From Gemmobacter sp. (lineage in GTDB: Bacteria > Pseudomonadota > Alphaproteobacteria > Rhodobacterales > Rhodobacteraceae): DNA of 64,000 nucleotides. Position numbers and translations under genes: made by a program. The DNA is taken from contig JBKBQT010000004.1 in NCBI GenBank assembly GCA_046292445.1, positions 19,206 to 83,205 on the forward strand, written 5' to 3'. Positions 8,496-56,542 of this stretch are shown here, piece after piece; positions within the stretch are counted from its first letter, which is position 1; each line of letters begins with the position of its first letter. Under the pieces are notes generated by a model. The model saw nothing but the letters and a program-made list of their open reading frames with translations. It was not told the origin of the DNA and made no database searches.

Positions 8496-8518
8496 CCCGA
8501 GCCTTGCGCGACCGAACG

Positions 8519-8550
8519 GGGCCCCCGCATCGACGGGGGCCCTTTTCCTT
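8519..8550 (+). terminator. Intrinsic terminator downstream of rpoC
   Basis: GGGCCCCCG (8519-8527), 6-nt loop, CGGGGGCCC (8534-8542), followed by TTTTCCTTT. It begins 24 nt after the rpoC stop. Confidence 0.7.
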
Positions 8551-8589
8551 TCCGGATCGGCCGTTTACCGGTGACGCCCGGAGGGCACG

Positions 8590-9471
8590 ATGCCACTTGC
8601 CGACAATACCCGCGGGGCGGTCCTGATGATGGCGGCGATGGCCGGCTTCACGGTCAACGACGCCTTCATGAAATCGCTGTCGGGCGAGGTGCCGCTGTTC
8701 CAGGGGATTTTCCTGCGCGGGGCGCTGGCGACGCTGTGCCTCGGCCTTGCTGCAGCGGCCAGCGGTGCGCTGCGCGCGCGCATCGACCGCGGCGACATGC
8801 TGCGGGTCGGTGTCCGCGGCGTGGCCGAAATCCTCGCAGCCTGGTTCTTCATCCTTGCGCTTTTCAACCTGCCGCTGGCCAATGTCACGGCCGTGCTGCA
8901 GGCCCTGCCGCTGACCGTCACCCTCGCCGCCGCGCTGTTCATGGGCGAGCCGGTCGGCTGGCGGCGGTTCACGGCGATCGGGGTCGGGTTCTGCGGCGTG
9001 ATCCTGATCGTGCGGCCGGGGCCGGAGGGGTTCAATCTCTACGCCTTCGCCGCCCTCGCCGCCGTCGCCTGCGTGACGGTGCGCGACCTTGTGACACGGC
9101 GCCTCACGCCGGCGATGCCATCGCTTCTGGTGGCGGCAGCGGTGTCGGGGATGGTGACGGTCTTTGCCGGGCTCGCCAGCCTGACCGAAACCTGGGCGCC
9201 GCTCGGGGCGGGCACGGTGCTGCGCATCGCCGGTGCGGGGGCTTTCGTCATCCTCGGCTACATCGCTTCGGTCGGCGCGATGCGGGTGGGCGAGATCGGG
9301 GCGGTTGCGCCGTTCCGCTACACCAGCCTGCTGTGGGCGCTGATCCTCGGGCTGGCGGTGTTCGGCGAATGGCCCGATCCGCTCACGCTGGCCGGGGCGG
9401 GGATCGTGGCGGCGACCGGCCTCTACACCCTCTACCGCGAACAGCGCCTGCGCCGACGCGCCCGGCCCTGA
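8590..9471 (+). CDS. DMT superfamily (EamA-like) transporter
   Basis: 293 aa, hydrophobic throughout with about 10 TM-like segments in two similar halves. The N-terminus MAAMAGFTVNDAFMK is typical of EamA/RhaT-type permeases. Confidence 0.8.
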   Translation: MPLADNTRGAVLMMAAMAGFTVNDAFMKSLSGEVPLFQGIFLRGALATLCLGLAAAASGALRARIDRGDMLRVGVRGVAEILAAWFFILALFNLPLANVTAVLQALPLTVTLAAALFMGEPVGWRRFTAIGVGFCGVILIVRPGPEGFNLYAFAALAAVACVTVRDLVTRRLTPAMPSLLVAAAVSGMVTVFAGLASLTETWAPLGAGTVLRIAGAGAFVILGYIASVGAMRVGEIGAVAPFRYTSLLWALILGLAVFGEWPDPLTLAGAGIVAATGLYTLYREQRLRRRARP

Positions 9472-9536
9472 GCTGTCACGACGGTGTCATCGCAAGCTGG
9501 CAGAGGGCGCGCAGACACTTCCGCGTGAGGATACGC

Positions 9537-11708
9537 ATGACCGTCCGCCTGCTCGGGTTCACATCCGCCCTCGCCATCGCCGCTGCCGCCCCCGCGATGG
9601 CGGAAAAGCATTTCAACCGCATTGCGACCTTTCCCGTCATCGCCAACATGGCGGCCGGCGAGGACACGGGCCGCGAATCCTCGGCCGAGATCGTCTCGGC
9701 GTCTGAGGACGGGATGACGCTCGTCTATTCCGACAGCCCGCTGGGGGTGATCGGGCTGATCGACATCACCGATCCGCGGGCGCCGCGACCGCTGGGCAAT
9801 ATCGACATGGGCGGCGAGCCGACGACGGCGGTGTTCATCGGGAACCGGATCTTCGCCGGCGTGAACACGTCGGAAAGCTTCGTCAATCCCTCGGGCAAGC
9901 TGGTGACGGTCGATGCCGCGACACGGTCGATCCTTGCCGAATGCGACCTCGGCGGCCAGCCCGACGCGGTCGCCAAGGCGCCCGACGGCAGCTTCATCGC
10001 GGTCGCCATCGAGAACGAGCGGGACGAGGGCCTCAACAAGGGCGACATGCCGCAGCTTCCCGCCGGGTTCGTGGTCAAGCTGCCGGTGAGCGACGGGACG
10101 GTCGATTGTGCGGCCAAGCAGGTGATCGACCTGACCGGCCTCGCCGAGGTCGTCCCCGAGGATCCCGAGCCGGAATATGTCGATGTGAATGCGGCCGGCG
10201 AGATCGTCGTGACGCTGCAGGAAAACAACCACATCGTCATCATCGGTGCCGATGGCGCGGTGACCGCGCATTTCTCGGCCGGTGCGGTCGAGATGGACGG
10301 GATCGACATCCGCCGGAACGGCGCGCTGGAATTCACCGGCAAGAAGGGCCCGACCCCGCGCGAGCCCGATGCGGTCAAGTGGCTGGACAACGACCACATC
10401 GTCATGGCCAACGAAGGCGACTGGAAGGGCGGCAGCCGCAGCTGGTCGATCTTCCGCAAGGACGGCACGCTGGTCTTCGACAGCGGCGCGTCCTTCGAAC
10501 ATGCGCTGATCGAGATCGGCCATTACCCCGAGCACCGCAGCCACACCAAGGGGATCGAGCCCGAGGGTGTCGAGGTTGCGGCCTTCGACGGCATCCCGAT
10601 GGCCTTCATCGCGTCCGAACGGGGCTCGGCGATCGGCGTCTATGACCTGACCGATCCGGCCGCGCCGCGCCTGCACCAGATCCTCCCCTCGGGGATCAGC
10701 CCCGAAGGGATGGTCGCGATCCCGTCGCGCAACCTGCTCGCCTCGGCGAACGAATACGATGCGCGCAAGGGTGGCGGCGCCGGCAGCCATGTGATGATCT
10801 ACGAATGGGCCGAAGGCCCGGCCGCCTATCCGACGATCACCTCGGCCGGCGCCGAGACGCTGATCGGCTGGGGCGCGCTGTCGGGCCTCGTGGCCGATGC
10901 CGAAAAGCCCGGTATCCTCTATGCGGTCTCGGACAGCGTCTTTGCGATGCAGCCCGCGATCTACACCATCGACGCAACGCAGACCCCCGCCCGCATCACC
11001 GCCAAGACGGTCGTCACGCGGTTCGGGGCGCCGGCGCAGAAGCTCGACCTCGAAGGGATCGCGCTCGCCGCCGATGGCGGGTTCTGGCTCGCGTCCGAAG
11101 GGCGGACCGACCGGCTGACGCCGCATGCCATCATCCGCACCGATGCCAAGGGCGAGATCCGCGAAGAGATCGGGCTGCCGCCGGAATTGCTGAATTACGA
11201 GACCCGCTTCGGCTTCGAAGGCATCTCGGTCCTCGGCGACGTGCTCTGGCTCGCGGTGCAGCGCGAATGGAAGGACGATCCCAAGGGCATGGTCAAGCTG
11301 GTGGCCTATGACACCAAGGCCAAGACCTGGGGCGCGGTGCATTACCCGCTCGACGCGCCCCCCGCAGACGGCTGGATGGGCCTGTCCGAAATCACGATCC
11401 GCGGCGACTGGGCCTATGTGATCGAGCGCGACAACCAGATCGGCGCGGAGGCGCAGACCAAGCGCCTCTACCGCGTGCCGGTGGCGCAGCTCGCGGCGGC
11501 ACCGCTCGGCGGCACGTTGCCCGTGGTCACCAAGGAGCTCGTGCGCGACTTCATCCCCGACCTGCAGGCGCTGAACGGCTATGTGCAGGACAAGGTCGAA
11601 GGCTTTGCCATCGACGCGGCCGGCGCTGCCTTTGTCGTGACGGACAACGACGGGGTCCAGGATGCCTCGGGCGAGACGCTGTTCTGGTCGATCGGCACAG
11701 TCGAGTGA
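9537..11708 (+). CDS. Secreted beta-propeller protein with a phytase-like (esterase-like activity of phytase) C-terminal region
   Basis: I chose the ATG at 9537 inside the longer track ORF because it gives a clean signal peptide (MTVRLLGFTSALAIAAAAPAMA/EK). The 723-aa protein resembles the choice-of-anchor-I plus phytase-like architecture, assigned from memory. Confidence 0.6.
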   Translation: MTVRLLGFTSALAIAAAAPAMAEKHFNRIATFPVIANMAAGEDTGRESSAEIVSASEDGMTLVYSDSPLGVIGLIDITDPRAPRPLGNIDMGGEPTTAVFIGNRIFAGVNTSESFVNPSGKLVTVDAATRSILAECDLGGQPDAVAKAPDGSFIAVAIENERDEGLNKGDMPQLPAGFVVKLPVSDGTVDCAAKQVIDLTGLAEVVPEDPEPEYVDVNAAGEIVVTLQENNHIVIIGADGAVTAHFSAGAVEMDGIDIRRNGALEFTGKKGPTPREPDAVKWLDNDHIVMANEGDWKGGSRSWSIFRKDGTLVFDSGASFEHALIEIGHYPEHRSHTKGIEPEGVEVAAFDGIPMAFIASERGSAIGVYDLTDPAAPRLHQILPSGISPEGMVAIPSRNLLASANEYDARKGGGAGSHVMIYEWAEGPAAYPTITSAGAETLIGWGALSGLVADAEKPGILYAVSDSVFAMQPAIYTIDATQTPARITAKTVVTRFGAPAQKLDLEGIALAADGGFWLASEGRTDRLTPHAIIRTDAKGEIREEIGLPPELLNYETRFGFEGISVLGDVLWLAVQREWKDDPKGMVKLVAYDTKAKTWGAVHYPLDAPPADGWMGLSEITIRGDWAYVIERDNQIGAEAQTKRLYRVPVAQLAAAPLGGTLPVVTKELVRDFIPDLQALNGYVQDKVEGFAIDAAGAAFVVTDNDGVQDASGETLFWSIGTVE

Positions 11709-17330: not shown

Positions 17331-17435
17331 CGATGCGAGGGCGCCCGCGCCGAGCCGCCCCTGCCCCCGCCCCTCCCAGAAAGCGGGCGGGGCGTCATCC
17401 TACGCCGGCGCATCGCAGCACGGAAAGGTCGTCCC

Positions 17436-19406
17436 ATGCAGCCGCGTGACACCATGGAACTGCGCGAAGAGGATATTCGCGCCCACTACCCCGCCGCGCT
17501 GGCGCTGCTCGACGGGTTCGACCATGCCCCGCGTCTGGCCAGGCCGCGCGAGGCGGCGGCGGCACCGGCCGGCGAACGCTCGCCCGGCATTCCGGCCGCC
17601 CGGCCCCGGTTCCGCCCGACCACCCCCGGCCTCGTCACGCGGCCGGTGGAGCGTGCCGGGTCGGTCCGCCTTCTCGACCGCATCGGGGCCGTGGCCGAGG
17701 ACGGCCTGCCCACACCGCTCGCCGCCGCCACGGTCCAGACGCTGCGCCGGTCGCTGGCGATCGCGCTGGCGATGGGGGCGAGCTTTGCGGGCCAGATGGG
17801 GCTGGCCGAGCTCAAGAAGGCCAATCTCGAGAACCGCCTGCCCGATGCCCGGCGGGCCGAGTTCGCCGAATTGCTGGCGGCCGAGGCACTCGTCACGCTC
17901 CATGCCTTCGCCAATGCCGCCGCCTACCTCATCGCCCCGCATCTGACCGAGGCCACCGTGGACGTCGGCGGCGTGGAGGAGGTTCTGACCGACAACGCCC
18001 CCCTCGCCCTGCACGGCGCGCTGTGGGAGCTTGACCAGGACATCGCCGCCTTTGCCGCGGACGACGCCCGCCTTGCCGCCACGCTCGCGGCCTTTGCCGA
18101 GGGGCTGATGGCCAGGGCCGCCGCACGGGCCGAGGCCATGCCCCGCGCTGCCGCCTATGCGGCCGGCTCCTGGCGGATCGAAGCGGACGGGCTGACCCTC
18201 GCCGGCTTCACCCCCGCGCGCAAGGCGCGCGGCACGGCGCTGACGATGGCGTTCAAGAAGCCGACCGATGTGGTCGGCAACCACATCGCCAAGCATCAGG
18301 CGATGAAGCTTGCCAAGATGCTGATGGCCTATGACTTCACCCGCAGGCTCAACCCCTTTGCCGAACTGGGCGGGTTCATCTTCACCTTCATGGGCGACGG
18401 CGCGCCGGGCACCGGCAAGACGACGCTGATCCAGATGATGGCGGGGCTGATCCACGATTACTGCGCCGTGGCGGGCTATCCCTTCCGCTATGCCAATTTC
18501 TCGATCGACCAGATCGACAGCTATCAGGGCAAGTCGGGGCAGAACGCCAAGGCCTTCATCGACCAGATCCTCGACCCCGCCGTGATCGGCTTTGGCACCA
18601 TCGACGACATCGACCAGGTCGCGGGCAAGCGCGGCGACCGGCAATCCTCGGCGGGCCAGCAGGAGGTGACGGCGGTGTTCATGCAGGCCTTTGCCGGGGC
18701 CAATACCGTCGTGCGCGGCAACTGCACCTTCGGCATGTTCTCGAACTACCCCGAGAATGTGGACGACGCGCTGCGCCAGCGGGCCGCGGCGCGGTTCCTC
18801 GTGGACGGGCCGCAGAGCCGCGCCGACTACATCGACATCCTCGCGCTGCTTCTGGGGCGCAACCATGCGATCCCGCTGGGCGACCACACGCTGATGGCGG
18901 CACAGGAAATCCGCCGCGCCGTCGCGCAGAGCTACGAGGGGCACAACCGCCCGCAGGAGGCCGGGCTGGTCGCGGTCTGGCAGGCAGTCGAGGCGGCGGT
19001 CGGCCCGCTCGACACGCTGGCCAAGCTCGGCACCTACCTCAAGGCGATCCACGAGGCCGATCCGCGCTTCACCGGCCGCGCGATCAAGAACATCACCGAC
19101 GCGGTGAAGGTCCGCGCGATGGATGTGGAATTGCCCGACGCATGGATGGAAAACCCCGAGCTGTTCCTGTTCCAGCCCTACGACGCCAAGATGGCCATGC
19201 TGCGCGAGATGCTCGTGCCGATCACGCCGGCGATGGTCGTGCAGGAGATCAACCGCTATGCCGACTCCGAGTTCCGCTACGCCGACAATTCGGACGAGCG
19301 GGCGGTGGACGCGATGGTGCGCGAGATGGGCCGGGCAGAAGAGGCGCGGCGGCGGTATCAGGGGGGGCGGGCGGCAACGGGCGGTTTGCAGCGAGGTTCC
19401 CAATGA
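17436..19406 (+). CDS. AAA family ATPase (classical AAA module with about 290-aa N-terminal extension)
   Basis: Walker A GDGAPGTGKTT, Walker B VIGFGTIDDID, and sensor-1/second region of homology FSNYPENVDDALRQRAAARF. RBS GGAAAGG lies 8 nt upstream of the ATG at 17436. Confidence 0.85.
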   Translation: MQPRDTMELREEDIRAHYPAALALLDGFDHAPRLARPREAAAAPAGERSPGIPAARPRFRPTTPGLVTRPVERAGSVRLLDRIGAVAEDGLPTPLAAATVQTLRRSLAIALAMGASFAGQMGLAELKKANLENRLPDARRAEFAELLAAEALVTLHAFANAAAYLIAPHLTEATVDVGGVEEVLTDNAPLALHGALWELDQDIAAFAADDARLAATLAAFAEGLMARAAARAEAMPRAAAYAAGSWRIEADGLTLAGFTPARKARGTALTMAFKKPTDVVGNHIAKHQAMKLAKMLMAYDFTRRLNPFAELGGFIFTFMGDGAPGTGKTTLIQMMAGLIHDYCAVAGYPFRYANFSIDQIDSYQGKSGQNAKAFIDQILDPAVIGFGTIDDIDQVAGKRGDRQSSAGQQEVTAVFMQAFAGANTVVRGNCTFGMFSNYPENVDDALRQRAAARFLVDGPQSRADYIDILALLLGRNHAIPLGDHTLMAAQEIRRAVAQSYEGHNRPQEAGLVAVWQAVEAAVGPLDTLAKLGTYLKAIHEADPRFTGRAIKNITDAVKVRAMDVELPDAWMENPELFLFQPYDAKMAMLREMLVPITPAMVVQEINRYADSEFRYADNSDERAVDAMVREMGRAEEARRRYQGGRAATGGLQRGSQ

Positions 19407-20812
19407 CACCCCTCATCACCCGCGGCCTGATGTTCGGGAACCTGATCCCGGTCGAATCCCCCGCCCTTGTCGAGCGCTACAACCGCGCGCTCAAACACCT
19501 CACGGGGAAAACCACCGCCCTGCCCGACTTCCACATCGACATCTCGGGCTATTCGCCCGAGATCGGCGACGAGCTGGACGATACCCGCTACCTCAACCCC
19601 GATGGCGCCAACCGCAGGTTCATCCTGCTGACCACGGAACAGAAGCGCGCGCCGCTGCTCGAGGCGGATTTTTCCACCTCGCGCGGGATCCTGCGGCAGT
19701 TCATCGACGCCAACGAGGCGCAGCTTTTCGCGCTGACCGCCCGCGATGCGGTGGCGGGGGAGCTGTCGAATACCGTCTATGACCTCGGCACCCCCGCCCG
19801 CCTTTTCGACATCCGCCGCGTGACGGTCGAGGCGGACACGATCGGCGGGCATGTGGCCGATGCGGCGAAACTCGCGGCCCTGATCGAGCGGTTCCGCAAG
19901 GAACCCGACGGCTGGCGCGACGACGTGCTGATCGCCGAGATGATCGGCCTGGCGAAACGGACCGGCGATGTCACCCGCGTGCCGATCGCGCTGCCGCAGA
20001 TGACCTTCGAGCAGCCGAATTTCTGGACGAGCCATTTCGGCGGCCTCTACATCTTTCGCGGGGTGAAGTTTCCGGCGGCGATCACCGTGCGCCCGCGCGC
20101 CGAGATCGGCCGGCTGCCGGTGCCGCAGGTGATGGATCTGGACGACCGCAACGCCATTGCCGACTGGCTCGACCGCAACGCGCTGGTCGAGCCCATCGTC
20201 GTTGCCCGCGATCTCGACACCGCCGCCCTTCTGCGGCAGAAGCTCGACTTTGTCCTTGTCGCGGCGGCCGAGACACTCGGCGTGATGGACGCCAAGGCGA
20301 CGCGCGCCGACCTGCGCGGCATCGCCCGCAAGCTCGGCGCCGCGCTGCCCGAGGCCTTCAAGGGCCTGGCCGACCTTCTGCGCTGGGTCGAGACGGGCGG
20401 GGAATGGCCGCGCATCACATCCGAGCATCCGGCCTATTTCTACACGCTGCGCGCCGCGCGCGGACCGGACCGCGACCTTGTAAACCAGCTTCTGTCCGAA
20501 CTGTCGCCGCTGGACGTGCGGCAGATGTTCATCTGCCACAAGGCGCGGTTCTACCGCGACTATGCCGGATGGTCGGCGGCCAAGCGCGAATGGGTGGCCG
20601 AGTTCCTCGCCCGCGAATATGCGGTGGACAAGGCCGGGGCGCGTGCGGCACTCTTCGGACCAGAGCCGGGCATGGACGAGGCGCCGCGCCCGCCGCCCGC
20701 ACCGCCGCCGCGGGTCGATATCGTCGGGCCCTGGGGTGCTGTCGCGCGCGCGGCCGCGGCCCGGGCGGGGTCTGGCTCGGGCGATGACCGCAAGGGGAGA
20801 ACGCGCCGATGA
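19403..20812 (+). CDS. Hypothetical protein, no recognisable domain
   Basis: 469 aa from the ATG at 19403, overlapping the upstream TGA (19404-19406). Globular-looking body followed by a Pro/Ala/Arg-rich tail. I vaguely recall homologs annotated only as a DUF in Rhodobacterales. Confidence 0.75.
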   Translation: MTPLITRGLMFGNLIPVESPALVERYNRALKHLTGKTTALPDFHIDISGYSPEIGDELDDTRYLNPDGANRRFILLTTEQKRAPLLEADFSTSRGILRQFIDANEAQLFALTARDAVAGELSNTVYDLGTPARLFDIRRVTVEADTIGGHVADAAKLAALIERFRKEPDGWRDDVLIAEMIGLAKRTGDVTRVPIALPQMTFEQPNFWTSHFGGLYIFRGVKFPAAITVRPRAEIGRLPVPQVMDLDDRNAIADWLDRNALVEPIVVARDLDTAALLRQKLDFVLVAAAETLGVMDAKATRADLRGIARKLGAALPEAFKGLADLLRWVETGGEWPRITSEHPAYFYTLRAARGPDRDLVNQLLSELSPLDVRQMFICHKARFYRDYAGWSAAKREWVAEFLAREYAVDKAGARAALFGPEPGMDEAPRPPPAPPPRVDIVGPWGAVARAAAARAGSGSGDDRKGRTRR

Positions 20813-21075
20813 TCCCCCTGCTGCGCGGCCTTGTCTTCGCGCTTGCCGTGCTGACGGTGATTTATGTCGCGGTGTCGCTCTATTCCGCCTCGCTGCGCCG
20901 CGAGCGGCTCGAGAAACAGTGGGAGGCCGAGGGGCGCCCGGGCACACGCGACGATTATGTCGCGGCAGGCATGGCAATCTACCGCAAGTCCTTTCGCCGG
21001 CGCATGCTGATCCTCATCTATATCCTGCCGCTGAGCGGCATGGCGATTCTCGTCTATCTGCTGAACTACGCCTGA
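20809..21075 (+). CDS. Small membrane protein with two TM helices
   Basis: 88 aa. The ATG at 20809 overlaps the upstream TGA. Two hydrophobic helices (LLRGLVFALAVLTVIYVAVSLY and MLILIYILPLSGMAILVYLL) flank a charged loop. Confidence 0.6.
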   Translation: MIPLLRGLVFALAVLTVIYVAVSLYSASLRRERLEKQWEAEGRPGTRDDYVAAGMAIYRKSFRRRMLILIYILPLSGMAILVYLLNYA

Positions 21076-21087
21076 AGGGGGCCAAGC

Positions 21088-21768
21088 ATGCTGCGCTGGA
21101 TCAAGTGGACGGTGATCGCGGTGTTCGCCCTGCTCGTCGCTTCGGTGCTGCACTACACGCTGCCGCAGCGCGACATCGTGCGGATCGTGGGCGTGAACAC
21201 GCAGCGCATGGATCTGGGCGAGAATGCGTTCTTCTTTTCCGGCCCTGCGGTCGGCGCGGGCACCGCGGCAGACGGGACGCGCGACATCCTGTTCATCAAC
21301 ACGATCCGGCCGAACGGCCGCCCCATGGTCTATCGCAACGAGGATACCGGCTGGATCTGGCCGCCCTATTTCAAGATCAACAGCTTCAGCCTGCAGGCGC
21401 GGGCATCCGACCTGGTATCGACCGAGGCGAACCCGCGCTGGGTCGCGGTGACGCATTACGGCTGGCGAAACGAGTTCTTTACCATCTTCCCCAATGCGAT
21501 CCGGCTGACCGAGGTCGAGGGGCCGGATGTCACGCTCATCCCCTGGCTCAACATCGTGATCCTGACGCTGCTGGCAGTCGCTTCGCTGACGGTCTGGCGC
21601 ATGCTGGCGCAGTTCCGCGAACGCACGATCGACCCGCTGCTCGACGCGGCGGGGGATGCCATCGACCGCGGGCAGGCGCGGGCGGAGGCGGCGCGTCGCG
21701 AGGCGCGCACGATGCGCGGGCGGTTGATGGCCTGGCTCGACAGCTGGCGGGGCAAGCCGCGGCGGTGA
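21088..21768 (+). CDS. Membrane protein with N- and C-terminal TM helices (DUF1523-like, tentative)
   Basis: 226 aa, 12 nt after the preceding stop, with RBS GAAGGGGG. N-terminal anchor WIKWTVIAVFALLVASVL, a central soluble domain, a second TM LNIVILTLLAVASLTVW, and a basic tail. Confidence 0.6.
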   Translation: MLRWIKWTVIAVFALLVASVLHYTLPQRDIVRIVGVNTQRMDLGENAFFFSGPAVGAGTAADGTRDILFINTIRPNGRPMVYRNEDTGWIWPPYFKINSFSLQARASDLVSTEANPRWVAVTHYGWRNEFFTIFPNAIRLTEVEGPDVTLIPWLNIVILTLLAVASLTVWRMLAQFRERTIDPLLDAAGDAIDRGQARAEAARREARTMRGRLMAWLDSWRGKPRR

Positions 21769-21843: not shown

Positions 21844-22089
21844 ATGACCCAGCGCCTGCACCTCGTCTTCGGCGGCGAGCTTGTGGACCCGTCGTCCACG
21901 ACCTTCCGCGACCCGGATGCGATCCATGTCGTGGGGATGTTCCCCGATTACGCCAGTGCCTACCGCGCCTGGAAGGCCGAGGCGCAGCGCACGGTGGACA
22001 ATGCCCACACGCGGTATTTCATCGCCCATATCCACCGCTTGCGCGACGAGGAGCAGCCGGCATCGGCAACCGAGGAGCTTGGCCGCTGA
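21844..22089 (+). CDS. Small conserved soluble protein (DUF4170-like, tentative)
   Basis: 81 aa from the ATG at 21844 (GGAGG 7 nt upstream): MTQRLHLVFGGELVDP... From memory, a protein of this type sits upstream of waaA in many alphaproteobacteria. Confidence 0.55.
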   Translation: MTQRLHLVFGGELVDPSSTTFRDPDAIHVVGMFPDYASAYRAWKAEAQRTVDNAHTRYFIAHIHRLRDEEQPASATEELGR

Positions 22090-22115
22090 GCCGACTGCCC
22101 CTGTCGCTCTATGCG

Positions 22116-23303
22116 ATGCGCGCACGGTCGCGCGCACGCCGGGCCGGCGTTGCAGACCTTCCGCTACAGCCGCCGCGGGCCGACGGGCCGGTGATCTGGC
22201 TCGACGCCGCCGATGCTGCCGCCGTGCCGCGCATCGCCGCCCTTGCGCGGCAGCTGCGGCGCGACCGGCCCCGGCTCACGGTGGTGCTGACCGGGCCGGG
22301 CCAGCCTTCGGCACAGGCAGGCGTGGTCATGCTCCCGCCGCTGGTCGATACGCCCGAGGTCAACGCCGCCTTCCTCGCGCATTGGCAACCGCTTGTTGCC
22401 GTGCTCGCCGGCGGGCCGGTGCGCCCCGCGCTGGCCGAGGCTGCCGCATCGGCGGCCGTGCCGCTGATCTGGCTCGAGGCGCCGGAACCCGAGATCGCAG
22501 GGGGCGGCCGCTGGCCGCGCCTGATGCGGCGCACGCTGTTGCGGATGCAGGCGATCCACAGTCGCGACGAGGCCGCGCTGGCCGCACTGCGGCGGGCCGG
22601 GGCGCCGACCGACCGGCTGGAACTGACCGGCCTGCTCGAGCTTCCGGCAACACCGCCCGCCGCGAACGAACCCGAACGCGCGGCACTGTCGCGCGCGATC
22701 GGGACGCGTCCGGTCTGGCTCGCCGCAGCGGTCACGCTGGCCGAACTCGACGCCGTCGCCGCGGCGCAGCTCGAGGCGATGCGATCGGCGCACCGGCTTT
22801 TGCTCATTGCCGTGCCCGAGCCGGTGACCGCTGCGGCGGCGCTCGCCGACCGGCTCCAGTCCGTGCATGGCCTGACCGTCGGCCGCCGGTCGGCCGAGGC
22901 CGAGATCGACGACGACCTGCAGGTCTATATCGCCGATACCGAGGGCGAATATGGCCTGTGGTATCGTCTGGCACCCGTCGCCTACCTCGGCGGAACGCTG
23001 ACCCCGACCGGCAGTCTCCGGCATCCGTTCGAGGCTGCGACGCTCGGGACGGCGATCATCCACGGCCCGGCCGGGGGCGAGGCGGCCGGGGTGTTGGACA
23101 TGCTGATACAGGCGCGCGCCACCCGCCCCATCGCCAGCGGCGCGGAACTGGGCACCGCGGTCGGCGACCTGCTCGCCCCCGACCGCGCGGCGCTGCTTGC
23201 GCAGGCGGGCTGGATGCAGGCGACGGCCGGGGCGGCGGCGACGGCGCGTGCAGTGCATGCCATCCTGCCGATCATCGACGCTGCGGCGGGCACGCGGCCG
23301 TGA
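22116..23303 (+). CDS. waaA: 3-deoxy-D-manno-octulosonic acid transferase homolog with degenerate catalytic motifs
   Basis: Collinear with E. coli WaaA, with scaffold matches such as DTEGEYGLWYRLAPVAYLGG versus GDTMGEL...FVGGS. The signature motifs are replaced (see findings). The true start may be an upstream non-ATG codon, since the frame is open back to about 22086 (LSRLPLSLYA). Confidence 0.7.
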   Translation: MRARSRARRAGVADLPLQPPRADGPVIWLDAADAAAVPRIAALARQLRRDRPRLTVVLTGPGQPSAQAGVVMLPPLVDTPEVNAAFLAHWQPLVAVLAGGPVRPALAEAAASAAVPLIWLEAPEPEIAGGGRWPRLMRRTLLRMQAIHSRDEAALAALRRAGAPTDRLELTGLLELPATPPAANEPERAALSRAIGTRPVWLAAAVTLAELDAVAAAQLEAMRSAHRLLLIAVPEPVTAAAALADRLQSVHGLTVGRRSAEAEIDDDLQVYIADTEGEYGLWYRLAPVAYLGGTLTPTGSLRHPFEAATLGTAIIHGPAGGEAAGVLDMLIQARATRPIASGAELGTAVGDLLAPDRAALLAQAGWMQATAGAAATARAVHAILPIIDAAAGTRP

Positions 23304-24121
23304 CGGTCGTCATCGCCCTGCGTCCGGCCTATCGCGCGGCGGACGGGCTCGTGCCGGCCCTCGCCGCGCTGGCCGCGCATCTGGCCGCCCGCGGACGGCG
23401 GGTTCACCTGGCGCTGGCGGCGCCCGGCCCGGCGGGGCGGATCGCCCTCGATGCGGCCGCAGCCGACCCGATGCTGGCGCTGCTGGCGGCGCATGCACCG
23501 CTCTGGACGGCAGAGGCGCTGCCCGCGGCCGTGGCCGCGGCTTCGGGGGCGGATGGGGGAGCGGATGCGGTTCTGGCGGGCGGCGCCCTGCCGGGGGCCG
23601 CGCTGCGCCTGCTGCTGGCCAGCGCCCGCGTTGGCCTCGGTCGCGCATGGCCGCTGGGGCCGCTTGCCGCGCCGCGCGGGAAGCTCCTGCGCGCGGCCGA
23701 TCTGTCGATCGTCATTGGCACGCGGGCCGAGATCGCCCATGCCCGCACGCGCGACCCTGCCTTGCAGGCAGGGATCGCCGCGGTGCCGGCCCTTCTTGCA
23801 ACGGGGATGGACTGGGCGGGCGAGCGTCTGTTGCTCGCTGCGCCCGCGCCGGACCTTCCGGGGCTCGCCGCACTCCTGACCGCGGCGGGCGCGAGCGTCG
23901 CCGCGACGGCGCCGCTCGATCCGGCCGGCCTGCTGGCGCCGGCGCTGCGCAGCCGCCTGATGGCCGAGGCGCGGGCCCGTCGTGCGCGGATCGTTGCCCC
24001 CGAGGCCGAGGCAGCGCGGATGCCCGCCGCCTTCCGGCGCGAGGTTCTGGCACTGCCGGTCCGCCTGACCTTCCCCCAGCCTGCGCCGCTCGATGCCGCC
24101 CTTGCGCAGATCGGCCTCTAG
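23300..24121 (+). CDS. lpxK: Tetraacyldisaccharide 4'-kinase homolog lacking the P-loop and other motifs
   Basis: 273 aa from the GTG at 23300, overlapping the waaA TGA (23301-23303). The C-terminal half is collinear with LpxK (LATGMDW..., MPAAFRREVLALPVRL). There is no GxxGKT anywhere in the frame. About 31% Ala by my hand count. Confidence 0.65.
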   Translation: MTVVIALRPAYRAADGLVPALAALAAHLAARGRRVHLALAAPGPAGRIALDAAAADPMLALLAAHAPLWTAEALPAAVAAASGADGGADAVLAGGALPGAALRLLLASARVGLGRAWPLGPLAAPRGKLLRAADLSIVIGTRAEIAHARTRDPALQAGIAAVPALLATGMDWAGERLLLAAPAPDLPGLAALLTAAGASVAATAPLDPAGLLAPALRSRLMAEARARRARIVAPEAEAARMPAAFRREVLALPVRLTFPQPAPLDAALAQIGL

Positions 24122-38303: not shown

Positions 38304-38624
38304 TCAGCCCCGCCCCTCGAGTGCCTCGCGCAGCCGCTCGATCTCGCCGCGCGCGGTGCGCAGCCCGTCCATCGCCGCGCGCAGTTCGGCCTCGGTCTGC
38401 GCGATCTGGTTGGTCAGTTCGGCCTCGCGATGCTCCATCCAAGCCAACGCCTGGTCGCGCATGTCCTCGGCCTCGTGCAATTCCTGCGCCATCCGGTCGA
38501 TTTCGGCGATATCGGCGCCCGCAACACGCGTGAAGCGATGAACCAGCCAGTAGGCGAACCAGCCAAGCGCGAAGGCCACGAAAAGGATGATCGCCGTGGC
38601 GATCACGAATTCGGTCCGGTTCAT
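38304..38624 (-). CDS. Small membrane-anchored coiled-coil protein
   Basis: 106 aa. One N-terminal TM (FVIATAIILFVAFALGWFAYWLV) followed by a coiled coil. The start overlaps the stop of the upstream OmpA-family gene. Confidence 0.65.
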   Translation of the reverse strand: MNRTEFVIATAIILFVAFALGWFAYWLVHRFTRVAGADIAEIDRMAQELHEAEDMRDQALAWMEHREAELTNQIAQTEAELRAAMDGLRTARGEIERLREALEGRG

Positions 38625-40765
38625 GGCGCGGTCCTGTCGGCGGGTCGGCGCTGGGGGCGCAGGGTGGCGGCCTGCGGGGCAAAGGAGGCTGCGGCGGGAT
38701 CTGCGCCGACCGCGGCAGCATCCTGCGCCGCGCCCGCTTCCCCTGCGGGCGTGGCGAGAACACCGGCGATGATCGGCGCTGCCGCCGGCGCTCCAGCGCC
38801 TGCGGCGGGATCCGCGTCCGTGTCCTCTGCCGCAACTGGGTCGCTGTCTGCGTCATCCGCGCCTGCGGGTCTGAAGGCACCCGCGCCCGCCGGATCGTCA
38901 GCGGCAGAGAGGCTTGCTGGCCCGTCCGCGACCGCGTCCGCGTCCGGGACCAGCAGGCGGAAGGCGATGCGGCGGTTGGTCTCGCGCCCGTCTTCGGTTG
39001 CGTTGTCGGCGATCGGTTCCTCTGCGCCGTAGCCCCGCGCGGTGATTGACGCCACCGGCACGCGCAGCGCCCGGAGCGCATTGCGCACCGCCTCGGCCCT
39101 GCGTTCGCTGAGGGCGAGGTTGGTTTCGGCGCGGCCCTGCGAATCGGTATGGCCGCCGATCTCGATCGGCGCATCGGGGCAGGATTGCAGGACGCGGGCG
39201 AGATCCTCGAGGGTGCGCCGGGCCGATCCGTCGATCTCGGCCGACCCCGGCGCGAAGGTGATCTTCCCCGCCGCAAGCACCGCATTCGCCGCCGCGACGC
39301 AGGCCTCGGGCGCCGGGCGGCCGGCGGCGGGATCGAGCGTTGCGTCATAGGTGACATCGACGCTGTATTGCGCGCCCTGGCCAAGCTGGTCGGCGAGCAC
39401 CCGCGCAATCTCGGCCGTCGCGCCCCGCATGCCGGTCCGGCCCTGCACCTGCACGCTGTCGGCCTCGACCAGCACCGAGCCCTCGTGGAGGACAGCGAGC
39501 GCGGCCAGCCCCGCGAGCACCCGGAGCGACCAGCCCGGCGGCAGGCCGTCGGGATCGACTCGCAGCGCTGTCGTCACCGCATCCGCCCCGAACCGGGCGC
39601 GAGCATAGGCGTCGGTGACGGCCTGCAGCCGTTCGTCCGCGATCCGGCCGCGCAAGGCGACCGTGCCGTCGGGCCCGCGCACCGCCGTGAACTGCGCCGC
39701 GGGGGCTTCGCGCGCCGCCTGCGGCGGCTCCAGCCGCGTCGCCTTGAGCGAGAAGACATCGGGGAGCGCCGCGCCAAGATCCCCCACCGCCCGGTCGAAG
39801 GCCGCAGCCGTGACCGTATGGGCCGCGATCAGCGTCACATCCGTGTCCGACAGCGTGACCGATCCAGCGCCGAGCCTTGCCAGCGCGGAAATCGCCGCCT
39901 CCGCCCCTTCGGCCCAGCGCGGCGAGGGGGCACCGAGGCCGAGGGCGCAGTCGATCTTGCCCGACACGCCTGCCGCAACCGCCGCCGCGACGATGCGCGC
40001 CCGGCCGCGCTCGCTGACTGCAGCGCAGGCGTCGAAGCGTGCGCCGGCCTCGTCCATCACGAAGCGCAAGGTAAAGGGCGTGATGACTGGCCGGGGCGCG
40101 GCGATGTCGATCCGCAGCGCAAGCGCCGCATCGCCGCGCGGTGCGGCCCGGGCAAGCGCCGTCTCGAACTGCCGCTGTTCTGCGACGGACTCGGCGATCG
40201 CCGTCACGGTGACCGCACCGGGGCGAATCGAGATCTTGGACCGCGGCAACAGCGCCAGCGCGTCGAGGCCGAAGCGCACCGCCTCGTCCCAGTGCCGCGG
40301 CACCGGATGGGTGGTGGTCTGGAGCATGTCGGCCACCGGCGCGTCGGCAGCGGCCCTTCCAGCCGCCGCGCGCAGCGCCGCGGCATCCCAGTCGCCCGGG
40401 ACGAGGCCGATCAGGGAAACGCCGTCGTCGTTGCGCAGAAGCTCGAGCAGGAATGCCGGCGGCGCGTTCGATGCCGCCGGCGTCACCTCGAGCGCGTCGA
40501 TCACCCGGTCGCCCCCGACCACCGTTCCGGCCAGGCTGACCGCGCGGAAGCGCAGCGCCTCGGTCGGGGCCGTTCCCGTCAGCGTCAGGGTCAGGCCATC
40601 GGCGCGCGCCTGCGCCCAGGGGAGGCCCTGCGCCGCCAGCAGCCGCTCGGTCAGGCGGACGGCGCGCGTCTCGATGGCGCCGGCGGCAAGGCTTGCGGTC
40701 ATCACCGCAAGGACAGCAGCCGCGCCAAAGGCGGCAAGCGCGATGAAGGTGGCGGTCAGGCGCAT
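38621..40765 (-). CDS. OmpA family protein (large periplasmic protein with OmpA-like peptidoglycan-binding domain and acidic low-complexity tail)
   Basis: 714 aa. N-terminal signal/anchor, OmpA_C motif IEIGGHTDSQGRAETNLALSERRAEAVRNAL...NRRIAF, then about 110 aa of Asp/Ala/Pro/Gly-rich tail. Confidence 0.85.
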   Translation of the reverse strand: MRLTATFIALAAFGAAAVLAVMTASLAAGAIETRAVRLTERLLAAQGLPWAQARADGLTLTLTGTAPTEALRFRAVSLAGTVVGGDRVIDALEVTPAASNAPPAFLLELLRNDDGVSLIGLVPGDWDAAALRAAAGRAAADAPVADMLQTTTHPVPRHWDEAVRFGLDALALLPRSKISIRPGAVTVTAIAESVAEQRQFETALARAAPRGDAALALRIDIAAPRPVITPFTLRFVMDEAGARFDACAAVSERGRARIVAAAVAAGVSGKIDCALGLGAPSPRWAEGAEAAISALARLGAGSVTLSDTDVTLIAAHTVTAAAFDRAVGDLGAALPDVFSLKATRLEPPQAAREAPAAQFTAVRGPDGTVALRGRIADERLQAVTDAYARARFGADAVTTALRVDPDGLPPGWSLRVLAGLAALAVLHEGSVLVEADSVQVQGRTGMRGATAEIARVLADQLGQGAQYSVDVTYDATLDPAAGRPAPEACVAAANAVLAAGKITFAPGSAEIDGSARRTLEDLARVLQSCPDAPIEIGGHTDSQGRAETNLALSERRAEAVRNALRALRVPVASITARGYGAEEPIADNATEDGRETNRRIAFRLLVPDADAVADGPASLSAADDPAGAGAFRPAGADDADSDPVAAEDTDADPAAGAGAPAAAPIIAGVLATPAGEAGAAQDAAAVGADPAAASFAPQAATLRPQRRPADRTAP

Positions 40766-40822
40766 GGGCTCTGCCTCGTCCTCGGGCCTTCGGTGGTAGC
40801 GCCGGCGGCCACTGTCATCAAC

Positions 40823-55284: not shown

Positions 55285-56409
55285 TCAGAGAAACGCGATC
55301 TGGTCGGCAAGCTGGTCGAGGTCGGTCATGCCGGCAAACGTGAGCCTTTCGCCGCCGTCGAACTCGAGGACGACGGCCCGGCGCTCGACCGTGCCGAAGG
55401 TCGCCACCACCTCCGCCGCCGTCAGCCCGCCGTCCCACAGCGCCTCGTCCAGCAGCACGGTATCGCGGTCGTCGAAACCCTCGACCCGGTCGCGCCCGCC
55501 GCCCTCGCGGAAGATGATCGTGTCGGCGCCGGGACCGGGGCGCAAAGTGTCGTTGCCCGGCCCGCCGTCGAGCGTGTCGTCGCCCGCGCCGCCGATCAGC
55601 AGATCGCGCCCCCGGCCGCCGAACAACCGGTCGTTCCCGCCGCCGCCCTCGAGCGTGTCGTCGCCGCCGCCGCCGAACAGACGGTCGCGCCCGCCCTCGC
55701 CCAGCAGGTGATCGGCGCCGGTTCCGCCAAACAGACGGTCATTCCCGTCGCCGCCGCGCAGGGTGTCGTTCCCGGCCGCGCCCTCGATCGTGTCGTTCCC
55801 GCCGAGGCCGTGGATCTCATCGGCGAACCGCGTGCCGGCGATCGCCTCGCCGGTATCGGTGCCACGGATCTCGGGCGGGCCGGACGGGTCGGCGGCGGCC
55901 CCGAACCAGACGTGGTAGATCCGCCCGCCGAACGGCCCGACGCCCGGCGTCCCGATCTCGACCCCGATCCCGATCGACGACCAGGCGAGCGATGCCCAGG
56001 GGCCCTGGTTCAGGATGACGCTGTTGTGCCCGGGCGAGGCTTTCCACCCCTCGAGCGCGGCCGCGACATTCGTCTGGCCGGCGGCCGAGATCTCGAACCC
56101 GTTCGCGGTATAGCCGGTGCCAAGCCGGTCGGGCGCCTTCCACATCACGGACGGGGCGCGGTGGTCGCTGTAGTAGAACGCATCCGACCAGCTGTGCAGG
56201 TTCGCGCCGGCGGGCAGCGTGAGGCCCGCCGCCCAGATGTTCTCATAGGTGTCGATCGCGTGCCGCCCGGCAGTCGTCGTCAGCGCGCGCGACAGCGGGA
56301 TCGCGGCAAGGCCGCTCGCCGCCCGGTAGTCCATGATGAGATTGTAGAGTTTGAGCTCGTTCAGCGACAGCGAATCCGCCGCCGTCGGCGTGTAGATGTC
56401 GATGGCCAT
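55285..56409 (-). CDS. CAP/SCP (PR-1-like) domain protein fused to RTX calcium-binding repeats
   Basis: 374 aa with no signal peptide. The N-terminal half is CAP-like (HRAPSVMW..., GWKASPGHNSVIL). The C-terminal half carries about 9 GGxGxD nonapeptide repeats (GGNDTIEGAAGNDTLRGGDGNDRLFGG...), then a non-repeat tail. Confidence 0.8.
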   Translation of the reverse strand: MAIDIYTPTAADSLSLNELKLYNLIMDYRAASGLAAIPLSRALTTTAGRHAIDTYENIWAAGLTLPAGANLHSWSDAFYYSDHRAPSVMWKAPDRLGTGYTANGFEISAAGQTNVAAALEGWKASPGHNSVILNQGPWASLAWSSIGIGVEIGTPGVGPFGGRIYHVWFGAAADPSGPPEIRGTDTGEAIAGTRFADEIHGLGGNDTIEGAAGNDTLRGGDGNDRLFGGTGADHLLGEGGRDRLFGGGGDDTLEGGGGNDRLFGGRGRDLLIGGAGDDTLDGGPGNDTLRPGPGADTIIFREGGGRDRVEGFDDRDTVLLDEALWDGGLTAAEVVATFGTVERRAVVLEFDGGERLTFAGMTDLDQLADQIAFL

Positions 56410-56542
56410 GCGCGCCCCTCCTGATAAGTTGGCTCTGGTTCACCCGGCTCTGTGGCAATTTGGCGGCGCGCATCGGCCGGTCCGATGAAACCGGCGCCGC
56501 GCCCCAGCGTCACGGGGGCGGCGTGGCAGAGGGGGGACAGGC

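Follow-up and report, generated by a model that had tools for sequence, protein, structure and literature searches.

The lpxK-like gene of Gemmobacter sp. codes for a protein that descends from the lipid A 4'-kinase LpxK, lacks almost all catalytic residues of this enzyme and is maintained under purifying selection. It occupies positions 23300..24121 (plus strand, 273 amino acids) of a 64,000-nucleotide stretch of contig JBKBQT010000004.1 (assembly GCA_046292445.1), hereafter called the window. With its catalytic residues lost and its open reading frame (ORF) under purifying selection, the protein corresponds to the operational definition of a pseudoenzyme. The interpretation that we favor, and consider reasonably probable, is that an lpxK ortholog at its ancestral locus has turned into a catalytically dead pseudo-kinase, which selection has kept, most likely for a non-catalytic role.

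Homology to LpxK had been proposed in a sequence-only reading of this DNA, together with a comparison to the family model PF02606. The homology was upheld by profile-profile comparison, whereas a Pfam scan at E <= 1 left the ORF without a match to PF02606; no LpxK match was obtained in an NCBIfam scan either. A four-sequence profile of the clade formed by the ORF and its close relatives was aligned by hhalign with 17 canonical Paracoccaceae LpxKs at a probability of 99.9% (E 1.7e-32, 242 columns). In a 5.8 billion-sequence database, the LpxK of Amaricoccus solimangrovi matched 99% of the ORF at 38% identity (E 1e-21). The AlphaFold2 model of the protein (predicted local distance difference test, pLDDT, 87.6; predicted template modeling score, pTM, 0.85) was matched by Foldseek with the Aquifex aeolicus LpxK structures 4itn, 4ehx and 4lkv, with E 1e-7 to 3e-6 and template modeling (TM) scores of 0.58-0.62. 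These structures and the cyclic diphosphoglycerate synthetase 8oru/8ork are the PDB neighbors of the model at E <= 0.001. Aquifex LpxK is narrowly surpassed as best single match by 8oru, an archaeal cyclic 2,3-diphosphoglycerate synthetase (E 3.8e-9). PDB sequences searched with the clade profile gave no match, and designed armadillo-repeat proteins that were matched in the PDB by the single sequence were rejected as spurious, as these matches are driven by the Ala/Leu-rich composition.

The position of the gene agrees with this descent. Its GTG start lies on the TGA stop of a waaA-like gene (22116..23303, plus strand, 395 amino acids), and the resulting GTGA overlap at 23300..23303 couples the two genes translationally, as the sequence-only reading had stated. 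In all 22 loci fetched from outside the clade, an lpxK gene, either canonical or without the nucleotide-binding P-loop, follows waaA immediately, usually with overlapping stop and start codons. A DUF4170 gene is located upstream of waaA in 19 of these 22 loci, and in 25 of all 29 fetched loci. In the remainder short contigs end earlier (two of the non-clade loci, three overall) or, in L025, another gene is found. In the window the DUF4170 gene (21844..22089, plus strand, 81 amino acids; Pfam PF13773, E 2.7e-25) is likewise the first of the DUF4170-waaA-lpxK trio conserved in Paracoccaceae. Because homology, fold and the conserved waaA-lpxK position agree, the lpxK-like ORF is the ortholog in the ancestral slot and not a stray paralog.

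The motifs that define LpxK were compared in alignments of the ORF with canonical LpxKs. About 47 residues of the canonical N-terminus are absent from the ORF and from all other clade members, close to the approximately 50 claimed before. The segment GNLxxGGxGKTP reads LRPAYRAADGLVP in the ORF, and the Walker A pattern GxxxxGGxGK[TS]P within it is replaced by RPAYRAADGLVP. SRGxGG is changed to LAAPGP, DDGFQ to GGALP, GFGNG to GL-G, FAGIGxPEKFF to AAPAPDLPGLA, DDH to DPA and TTEKDAVR to APEAEAAR. All rows of the earlier motif comparison are thus upheld. The former P-loop also varies within the clade, where RPAYRAADGLVP, VPAARDPRDTEL and TPPGAAP were found, and the columns of the canonical Walker B residues D142 and D143 hold G/L and G in all seven clade members. 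A Walker A hidden in another frame or behind another start, which the earlier reading had named as a possible refutation, was looked for. No LpxK-type P-loop (pattern G[NG]x2-4GGxGK[ST]) occurs in the six frames of the whole window, and direct reading of the sequence that precedes the GTG start in frame and overlaps waaA showed neither a P-loop nor an N-terminal helix segment.

The loss is unevenly distributed along the protein. When 19 canonical LpxKs and the seven clade members were aligned, 107 columns showed conservation of at least 90% among the canonical sequences. Residues 1-45 in Rhodobacter ruber numbering, the N-terminal segment, contain 11 of these columns, of which the clade retains 0% owing to the deletion. 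The P-loop segment (residues 46-65, 10 conserved columns) is retained to 23% and the last 60 residues (271-329, 21 conserved columns) to 67%. The motifs TGMDW, RLPxxxRRxxLALPVRL and PAPLDAAL, mostly located in the C-terminal third, are conserved in the clade and in canonical family members.

The functional weight of these losses can be judged from mutagenesis of Aquifex LpxK. Mutants of the Walker A residues K51 and T52 showed a kcat reduced 3000-fold, those of the Walker B residues D138 and D139 were reduced 4700- and 8100-fold, and a mutant of H261, the His of the DH motif, 850-fold (PMC6286764). D99 and E100, the Asp and Glu of the GDE motif, were reported as necessary for activity, D99 being catalytic, and the N-terminal amphipathic helix mediates membrane association and is also necessary for activity (PMC6286764). 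According to the alignment, the equivalents of K51, T52, D138 and D139 are all lost in the clade. The position of E100 is occupied by Pro or Ala and that of H261 by Ala, Val, Glu or Gln, and the equivalent of D99, D56, is the sole catalytic residue kept. Since the lost residues map onto those probed in Aquifex LpxK, kinase function at this locus is very probably gone. The earlier claim of a non-functional kinase is therefore strongly supported by the loss of the P-loop and of nearly every catalytic residue. In comparison with LpxK (tetraacyldisaccharide-1-phosphate 4'-kinase, EC 2.7.1.130, PF02606; Aquifex aeolicus 4EHX, 4ITN, 4LKV), the lpxK-like protein shares descent, the two-domain fold and the slot after waaA with its stop/start overlap, and it has the C-terminal motifs TGMDW, RLP, LPVRL and PLDAAL in common with Paracoccaceae LpxKs. 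It differs in lacking the amphipathic helix, Walker A and B, Glu100, His261 and SRGYGG (with the lipid-phosphate ligand R72), and its GFGNG is reduced. It is also about 55 residues shorter, consists of 31% Ala and escapes the Pfam and NCBIfam models. Thus the protein is derived from LpxK but is functionally not a member of this family, several of whose defining features it lacks.

The sequence-only reading had regarded these losses as decay of the locus. Selection on the gene was assessed in clade DNA from the window, L001 (GCA_046313215.1), L002 and L003 (JGI metagenomes) and L029 (an ENA contig of 66.8 kb). Gene order is identical in the five loci, and the arrangement is reproduced in independent assemblies from NCBI, JGI, ENA and Logan. 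The ratio of non-synonymous to synonymous substitution rates (dN/dS), calculated according to Nei and Gojobori (NG86), was 0.20 at dS 0.28 between the window and L001, 0.28 at dS 0.49 between L002 and L003, and about 0.4 at dS about 1 in deep, saturated pairs. These values fall within the range of the neighboring genes (DUF1523 0.11-0.46, peptidase 0.25), and they are similar to those of canonical LpxK pairs of the family (0.2-0.4 at dS about 1). The dN/dS of the DUF4170 gene is 0.02-0.14. Differences at the three codon positions numbered 18/14/56 between the window and L001 (chi-square p about 1e-8) and 36/27/92 between L002 and L003 (p about 4e-11). Indel lengths in the close pairs are all divisible by 3, with 12 nucleotides in one pair and 3, 3 and 12 nucleotides in the other. 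The overlap of the start codon with the waaA stop is kept in 5/5 clade loci as GTGA, ATGA or TGATG and also occurs in canonical relatives. Low dN/dS, third-position excess, in-frame indels and a conserved overlap show that purifying selection acts on the protein encoded in the lpxK-like frame, so that "decay" is a misnomer for this gene.

LpxKs without a P-loop are not restricted to the clade. In a HMMER search of 1.84 billion representative sequences, the clade profile gave 271 matches. About 95 long matches were inspected; in about 30 of them the P-loop has no GK[ST], and as a rule DDGFQ and DH are gone as well. Since many of these P-loop-less forms still keep GFGNG, PAGPL, TTExDA and the N-terminal PxFW segment, the erosion is graded. 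Named carriers are Roseovarius autotrophicus (WP_210879336), Roseovarius sp. MBR-6 and MBR-79 (proteins P0175 and P0178), Anianabacter salinae (WP_267139903) and a metagenome-assembled genome (MAG) of Paracoccaceae. In the cultured R. autotrophicus (GCA_018069895.1, locus L023, 10001-10969) and A. salinae (GCA_019061145.1, locus L030, 10001-10840) the gene occupies the DUF4170-waaA-lpxK slot. Like the window protein, the forms from Roseovarius, Anianabacter and metagenomes have lost GK[ST], DDGFQ and DH at this locus, but most of them keep GFGNG, PAGPL and TTExDA, are PF02606-positive and often keep the PxFW helix. In databases the Roseovarius and Anianabacter homologs are annotated as tetraacyldisaccharide 4'-kinase. 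The window clade is the most eroded form among the P-loop-less LpxKs and arose apart from the R. autotrophicus lineage. A profile search of genome contigs did not reveal the eroded clade form in GTDB species representatives, as 17/17 matches were canonical LpxKs with 32-38% identity. Among the 120 matches listed for a profile of 32 eroded LpxKs, all were full-length, PF02606-positive LpxKs of named Paracoccaceae except one member of the query.

The age of the loss was approached through the adjacent WaaA. The nearest named relatives of the WaaA-like protein are found in Gemmobacter megaterium, Tabrizicola, Cypionkella and Fertoebacter (42-49% identity), and a closer sister is encoded on the metagenome contig L027 (WaaA 55% identical). 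Both L027 and G. megaterium harbor a canonical LpxK, so the loss in the clade postdates its split from these relatives. In a WaaA tree the window clade is nested inside the Rhodobacter/Gemmobacter group, whereas R. autotrophicus groups apart from it with an ENA contig carrying P0013. This tree and the canonical LpxKs of the sister lineages indicate that the kinase motifs were lost at least twice independently, and the R. autotrophicus lineage appears to have lost them separately from the window clade. Judged from these comparisons, the loss is recent, lies inside the Gemmobacter/Rhodobacter group and is recurrent. A single origin of the eroded forms, suggested by a basal long-branch cluster in a neighbor-joining tree of LpxKs, was rejected, since long-branch attraction is likely there.

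The sequence-only reading had also held the waaA homolog to be non-functional. The WaaA-like protein is detected by Pfam PF04413 (E 1.6e-11, 44.5 bits versus a cut-off of 23.9), and the best NCBIfam equivalog, NF004387, reaches 106.5 bits and not its cut-off of 617. Its AlphaFold2 model (pLDDT 90.8) matches Aquifex WaaA 2xci with E 4.6e-17 and TM 0.64-0.70, and its dN/dS is 0.16-0.37. The protein is a GT30 glycosyltransferase that adopts the WaaA-type GT-B fold; its motifs are divergent, and it lacks a hydrophobic segment at the N-terminus. The residues compared were G30, E31, E98, K162 and R212, which are important in Aquifex WaaA, and N273, a ligand of cytidine monophosphate. Equivalents of G30/E31, E98, R212 and N273 are missing. 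SVGE, which holds G30/E31, is changed to DAAA, ESELW to GGPVR, PR(H), which holds R212, to PE, and GGHN, which holds N273, to SLRH. The loss of SVGE, PRHP and GGHN is common to the WaaA proteins of R. ruber, G. megaterium, Tabrizicola, Cypionkella and Fertoebacter, and it also occurs in Paracoccus aerius, P. indicus, Actibacterium and Profundibacterium. It was located in the waaA genes of L007 (8631-9824), L028 (7465-8574), L013, L019, L020 and L022 and in the proteins P0333, P0370, P0381, P0408 and P0427. The adjacent LpxK is canonical wherever it was read, that is in R. ruber, G. megaterium, both Paracoccus species, Actibacterium and Profundibacterium, and the textbook WaaA motifs are kept only in Amaricoccus, a Rhodovulum MAG and one other MAG. 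Because the same motifs are lost in relatives with a canonical LpxK, their absence does not show a loss of function, and the claim of a non-functional WaaA is unsafe. Either these residues are dispensable in the Rhodobacter/Gemmobacter/Tabrizicola/Cypionkella/Paracoccus group, or the real transferase for 3-deoxy-D-manno-octulosonate (Kdo) is encoded elsewhere. Specific to the clade are the absence of the hydrophobic segment "SLGLTLYNL" at the N-terminus, a His to Asp change in WLHAP and the change of VPxDPxR to VPEPV. Both the WaaA-like and the LpxK-like protein lack their membrane-proximal N-termini.

In the favored pseudo-kinase model, the protein keeps the two-domain LpxK fold. Having lost the N-terminal helix, the P-loop and Walker B as well as the GDE Glu and the DH His, it would no longer phosphorylate the lipid A disaccharide at its 4' position. 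Its translation presumably stays coupled to that of the WaaA-like GT-B glycosyltransferase, itself without an N-terminal membrane segment. The lpxK-like protein might then serve this co-translated partner in a structural, regulatory or substrate-holding role, a suggestion that we make with reserve. Such a role would probably rest on the conserved C-terminal part with TGMDW, RLPxxxRRxxLALPVRL and PAPLDAAL. In its simplest form the model supposes that canonical LpxK already has a non-catalytic role in holding or regulating the transferase or the lipid substrate, and that this role has outlived catalysis. The physiological setting may be a second lpxK elsewhere in the genome, a lipid A that is never 4'-phosphorylated, or the absence of lipid A. 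Several points weigh against the model. The non-catalytic role is a guess from the translational coupling and the conservation pattern only. Given the retained D56 and several invariant Arg, some other chemistry is conceivable, though with a low probability. NG86 estimates of dN/dS are approximate in genes of 78% guanine plus cytosine (GC), and the deep comparisons at dS about 1 are saturated. Finally, a pseudo-kinase with about 30% Ala and an isoelectric point of 11-12 could be a marginally constrained protein.

Three other explanations were weighed against this model. A decaying pseudogene, left over from a lost lipopolysaccharide (LPS) pathway and open only through the rarity of stop codons in DNA of 78% GC, would fit the raised GC and Ala content and the failure of Pfam to detect the protein. 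It would also fit the rate of change, since the lpxK-like gene is the fastest-evolving one of its neighborhood, with 58% identity against 71-93% for neighbors at equal divergence. Many spurious long ORFs overlap the region, including one of 746 amino acids (21881-24121, plus strand) that runs in the lpxK-like frame and crosses waaA in another frame. Between 20000 and 26000 of the window, many ORFs of 100-570 amino acids overlap on both strands. These are artefacts, because stop codons are scarce at 73-78% GC, and therefore an open frame alone says little here. However, dN/dS is 0.20-0.28 at unsaturated divergence, the excess of third-position changes is 3- to 4-fold in exactly the lpxK-like frame, the indels of close pairs preserve this frame, and five loci preserve the overlap of the start codon with the waaA stop. 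The AlphaFold2 model is also confident, and constraint is no weaker than in canonical LpxK. Raised GC was rejected as a sign of decay, since canonical lpxK genes also lie about 5 GC points above their loci; in L007, L009, L023, L025, L027, L028 and L030, lpxK genes, canonical or eroded, are about 5-9 points above the respective 20-kb loci. We therefore regard a pseudogene as very unlikely. The protein might instead still act as a 4'-kinase or another phosphotransferase that binds its nucleotide at a non-canonical site, as the retained fold, the Asp99 equivalent and the several Arg residues invariant in the clade would allow. This is hard to reconcile with the replacement of the Walker A Lys and Thr, both Walker B Asp and the Glu100 and His261 equivalents, as mutating any one of those residues in Aquifex LpxK lowers kcat 850- to 8100-fold (PMC6286764). 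The N-terminal helix, which is necessary for activity, is also deleted, and the former P-loop differs among clade members (RPAYRAADGLVP, VPAARDPRDTEL and TPPGAAP). A surviving kinase activity thus appears most unlikely.

A redundant paralog is a more serious contender, and we consider it quite possible. Here a second, canonical lpxK elsewhere in the genome would perform 4'-phosphorylation, LPS would be ordinary, and the ancestral copy would have been free to diverge or to acquire a new function. LpxK is normally indispensable in LPS-producing proteobacteria (PMC6286764). As sister lineages have a normal LpxK, doing without the step entirely would mean a drastic change of recent date, and the 64-kb window, only part of one contig, holds nothing that contradicts a second copy. 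However, neither a second lpxK nor an LpxK-type P-loop was found in the window, and none of the carriers has a second lpxK up to 10 kb from the locus. Moreover, at least two lineages have undergone the same loss independently at the ancestral locus, so that replacement would have had to happen repeatedly.

Comparisons with known systems can be drawn both for the protein and for the lipid. Pseudoenzymes are dead homologs kept as regulators or scaffolds, as in pseudokinases and in the degenerate LytM factors EnvC and NlpD, which activate amidases. They resemble the lpxK-like protein in a retained fold, lost catalytic residues and purifying selection, an analogy of function that would not involve any sequence relationship. 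Bacteria other than the roseobacter Loktanella rosea that have 4'-dephospho lipid A are known to remove this phosphate after the LpxK step. In L. rosea itself, the lipooligosaccharide contains Kdo, and its lipid A carries neither the 4' nor the 1 phosphate (Ierano et al. 2010, summarized in PMC3210612), a structure that in the view of the authors implies profound biosynthetic differences (PMC3210612). This member of the same broad family group may serve as a precedent for lipid A without 4'-phosphate, in its chemistry only. WaaA of E. coli requires the 4'-phosphate, and Aquifex WaaA partly tolerates its absence (PMC6286764). On a bolder version of the model, the genus-level clade in the Gemmobacter/Rhodobacter group would have no functional 4'-kinase at all, its lipid A being never 4'-phosphorylated or absent, and the dead LpxK would be a non-catalytic subunit of a re-tooled WaaA-like transferase. 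We consider this version conceivable but rather unlikely. R. autotrophicus, independently, and A. salinae may be in the same kinase-free state.

If true, this would be a natural and recurrent bypass of a step that is regarded as obligatory in the Raetz pathway. In lipid A synthesis, LpxK is taken to be the last step that is strictly indispensable, and it is a candidate drug target. A selected LpxK without ATP-binding machinery would mean either that an enzyme of this pathway has been recycled as a pseudoenzyme or that an outer membrane is built without 4'-phosphorylation; the lineage would have either another kinase elsewhere or an outer membrane of different construction. Recurrence in several Paracoccaceae lineages makes either reading more notable. 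The automated annotation of the milder forms as 4'-kinase would lead pathway reconstructions to score the step wrongly as present. As cultured R. autotrophicus and A. salinae carry such milder erosion, the question is directly testable. A full-text literature search for LpxK together with pseudokinase yielded no description of a P-loop-less LpxK, and a survey of Kdo2-lipid A pathway evolution is silent on it. As far as could be found, a pseudoenzyme class has not been described before for the Raetz pathway.

Directly upstream of the DUF4170-waaA-lpxK genes, the window contains a block of genes for an AAA ATPase, DUF6638, an 88-amino acid ORF and DUF1523 (17331-21768, plus strand). The block is kept in L001 and L029, and in L002, L003 and L005 as far as these short contigs extend; it is absent within 10 kb of the locus in relatives with canonical LpxK. 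Downstream of the lpxK-like gene follow a peptidoglycan-binding trypsin-like peptidase on the minus strand and then glyQ. Pfam annotation of most called genes of the window revealed no other LPS, Kdo or Lpt genes. A phytase-like protein of ~1070 amino acids with a choice-of-anchor I domain (8496-11708, plus strand), an OmpA/BON protein of ~730 amino acids (38621-40822, minus strand) and an RTX-repeat protein (55285-56439, minus strand) are encoded there, none of them by an LPS biosynthesis gene. The lpxK-like gene has a GC content of 78.3%, compared with 66-70% in its flanks, with 0.87, 0.63 and 0.85 at the three codon positions. Its product contains exactly 84 Ala in 273 residues (30.7%), the number that had been estimated from the sequence, and has an isoelectric point of about 11-12. 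The identical protein is present in an NCBI MAG entry as "hypothetical protein ACK4TB_03750 [Gemmobacter sp.]".

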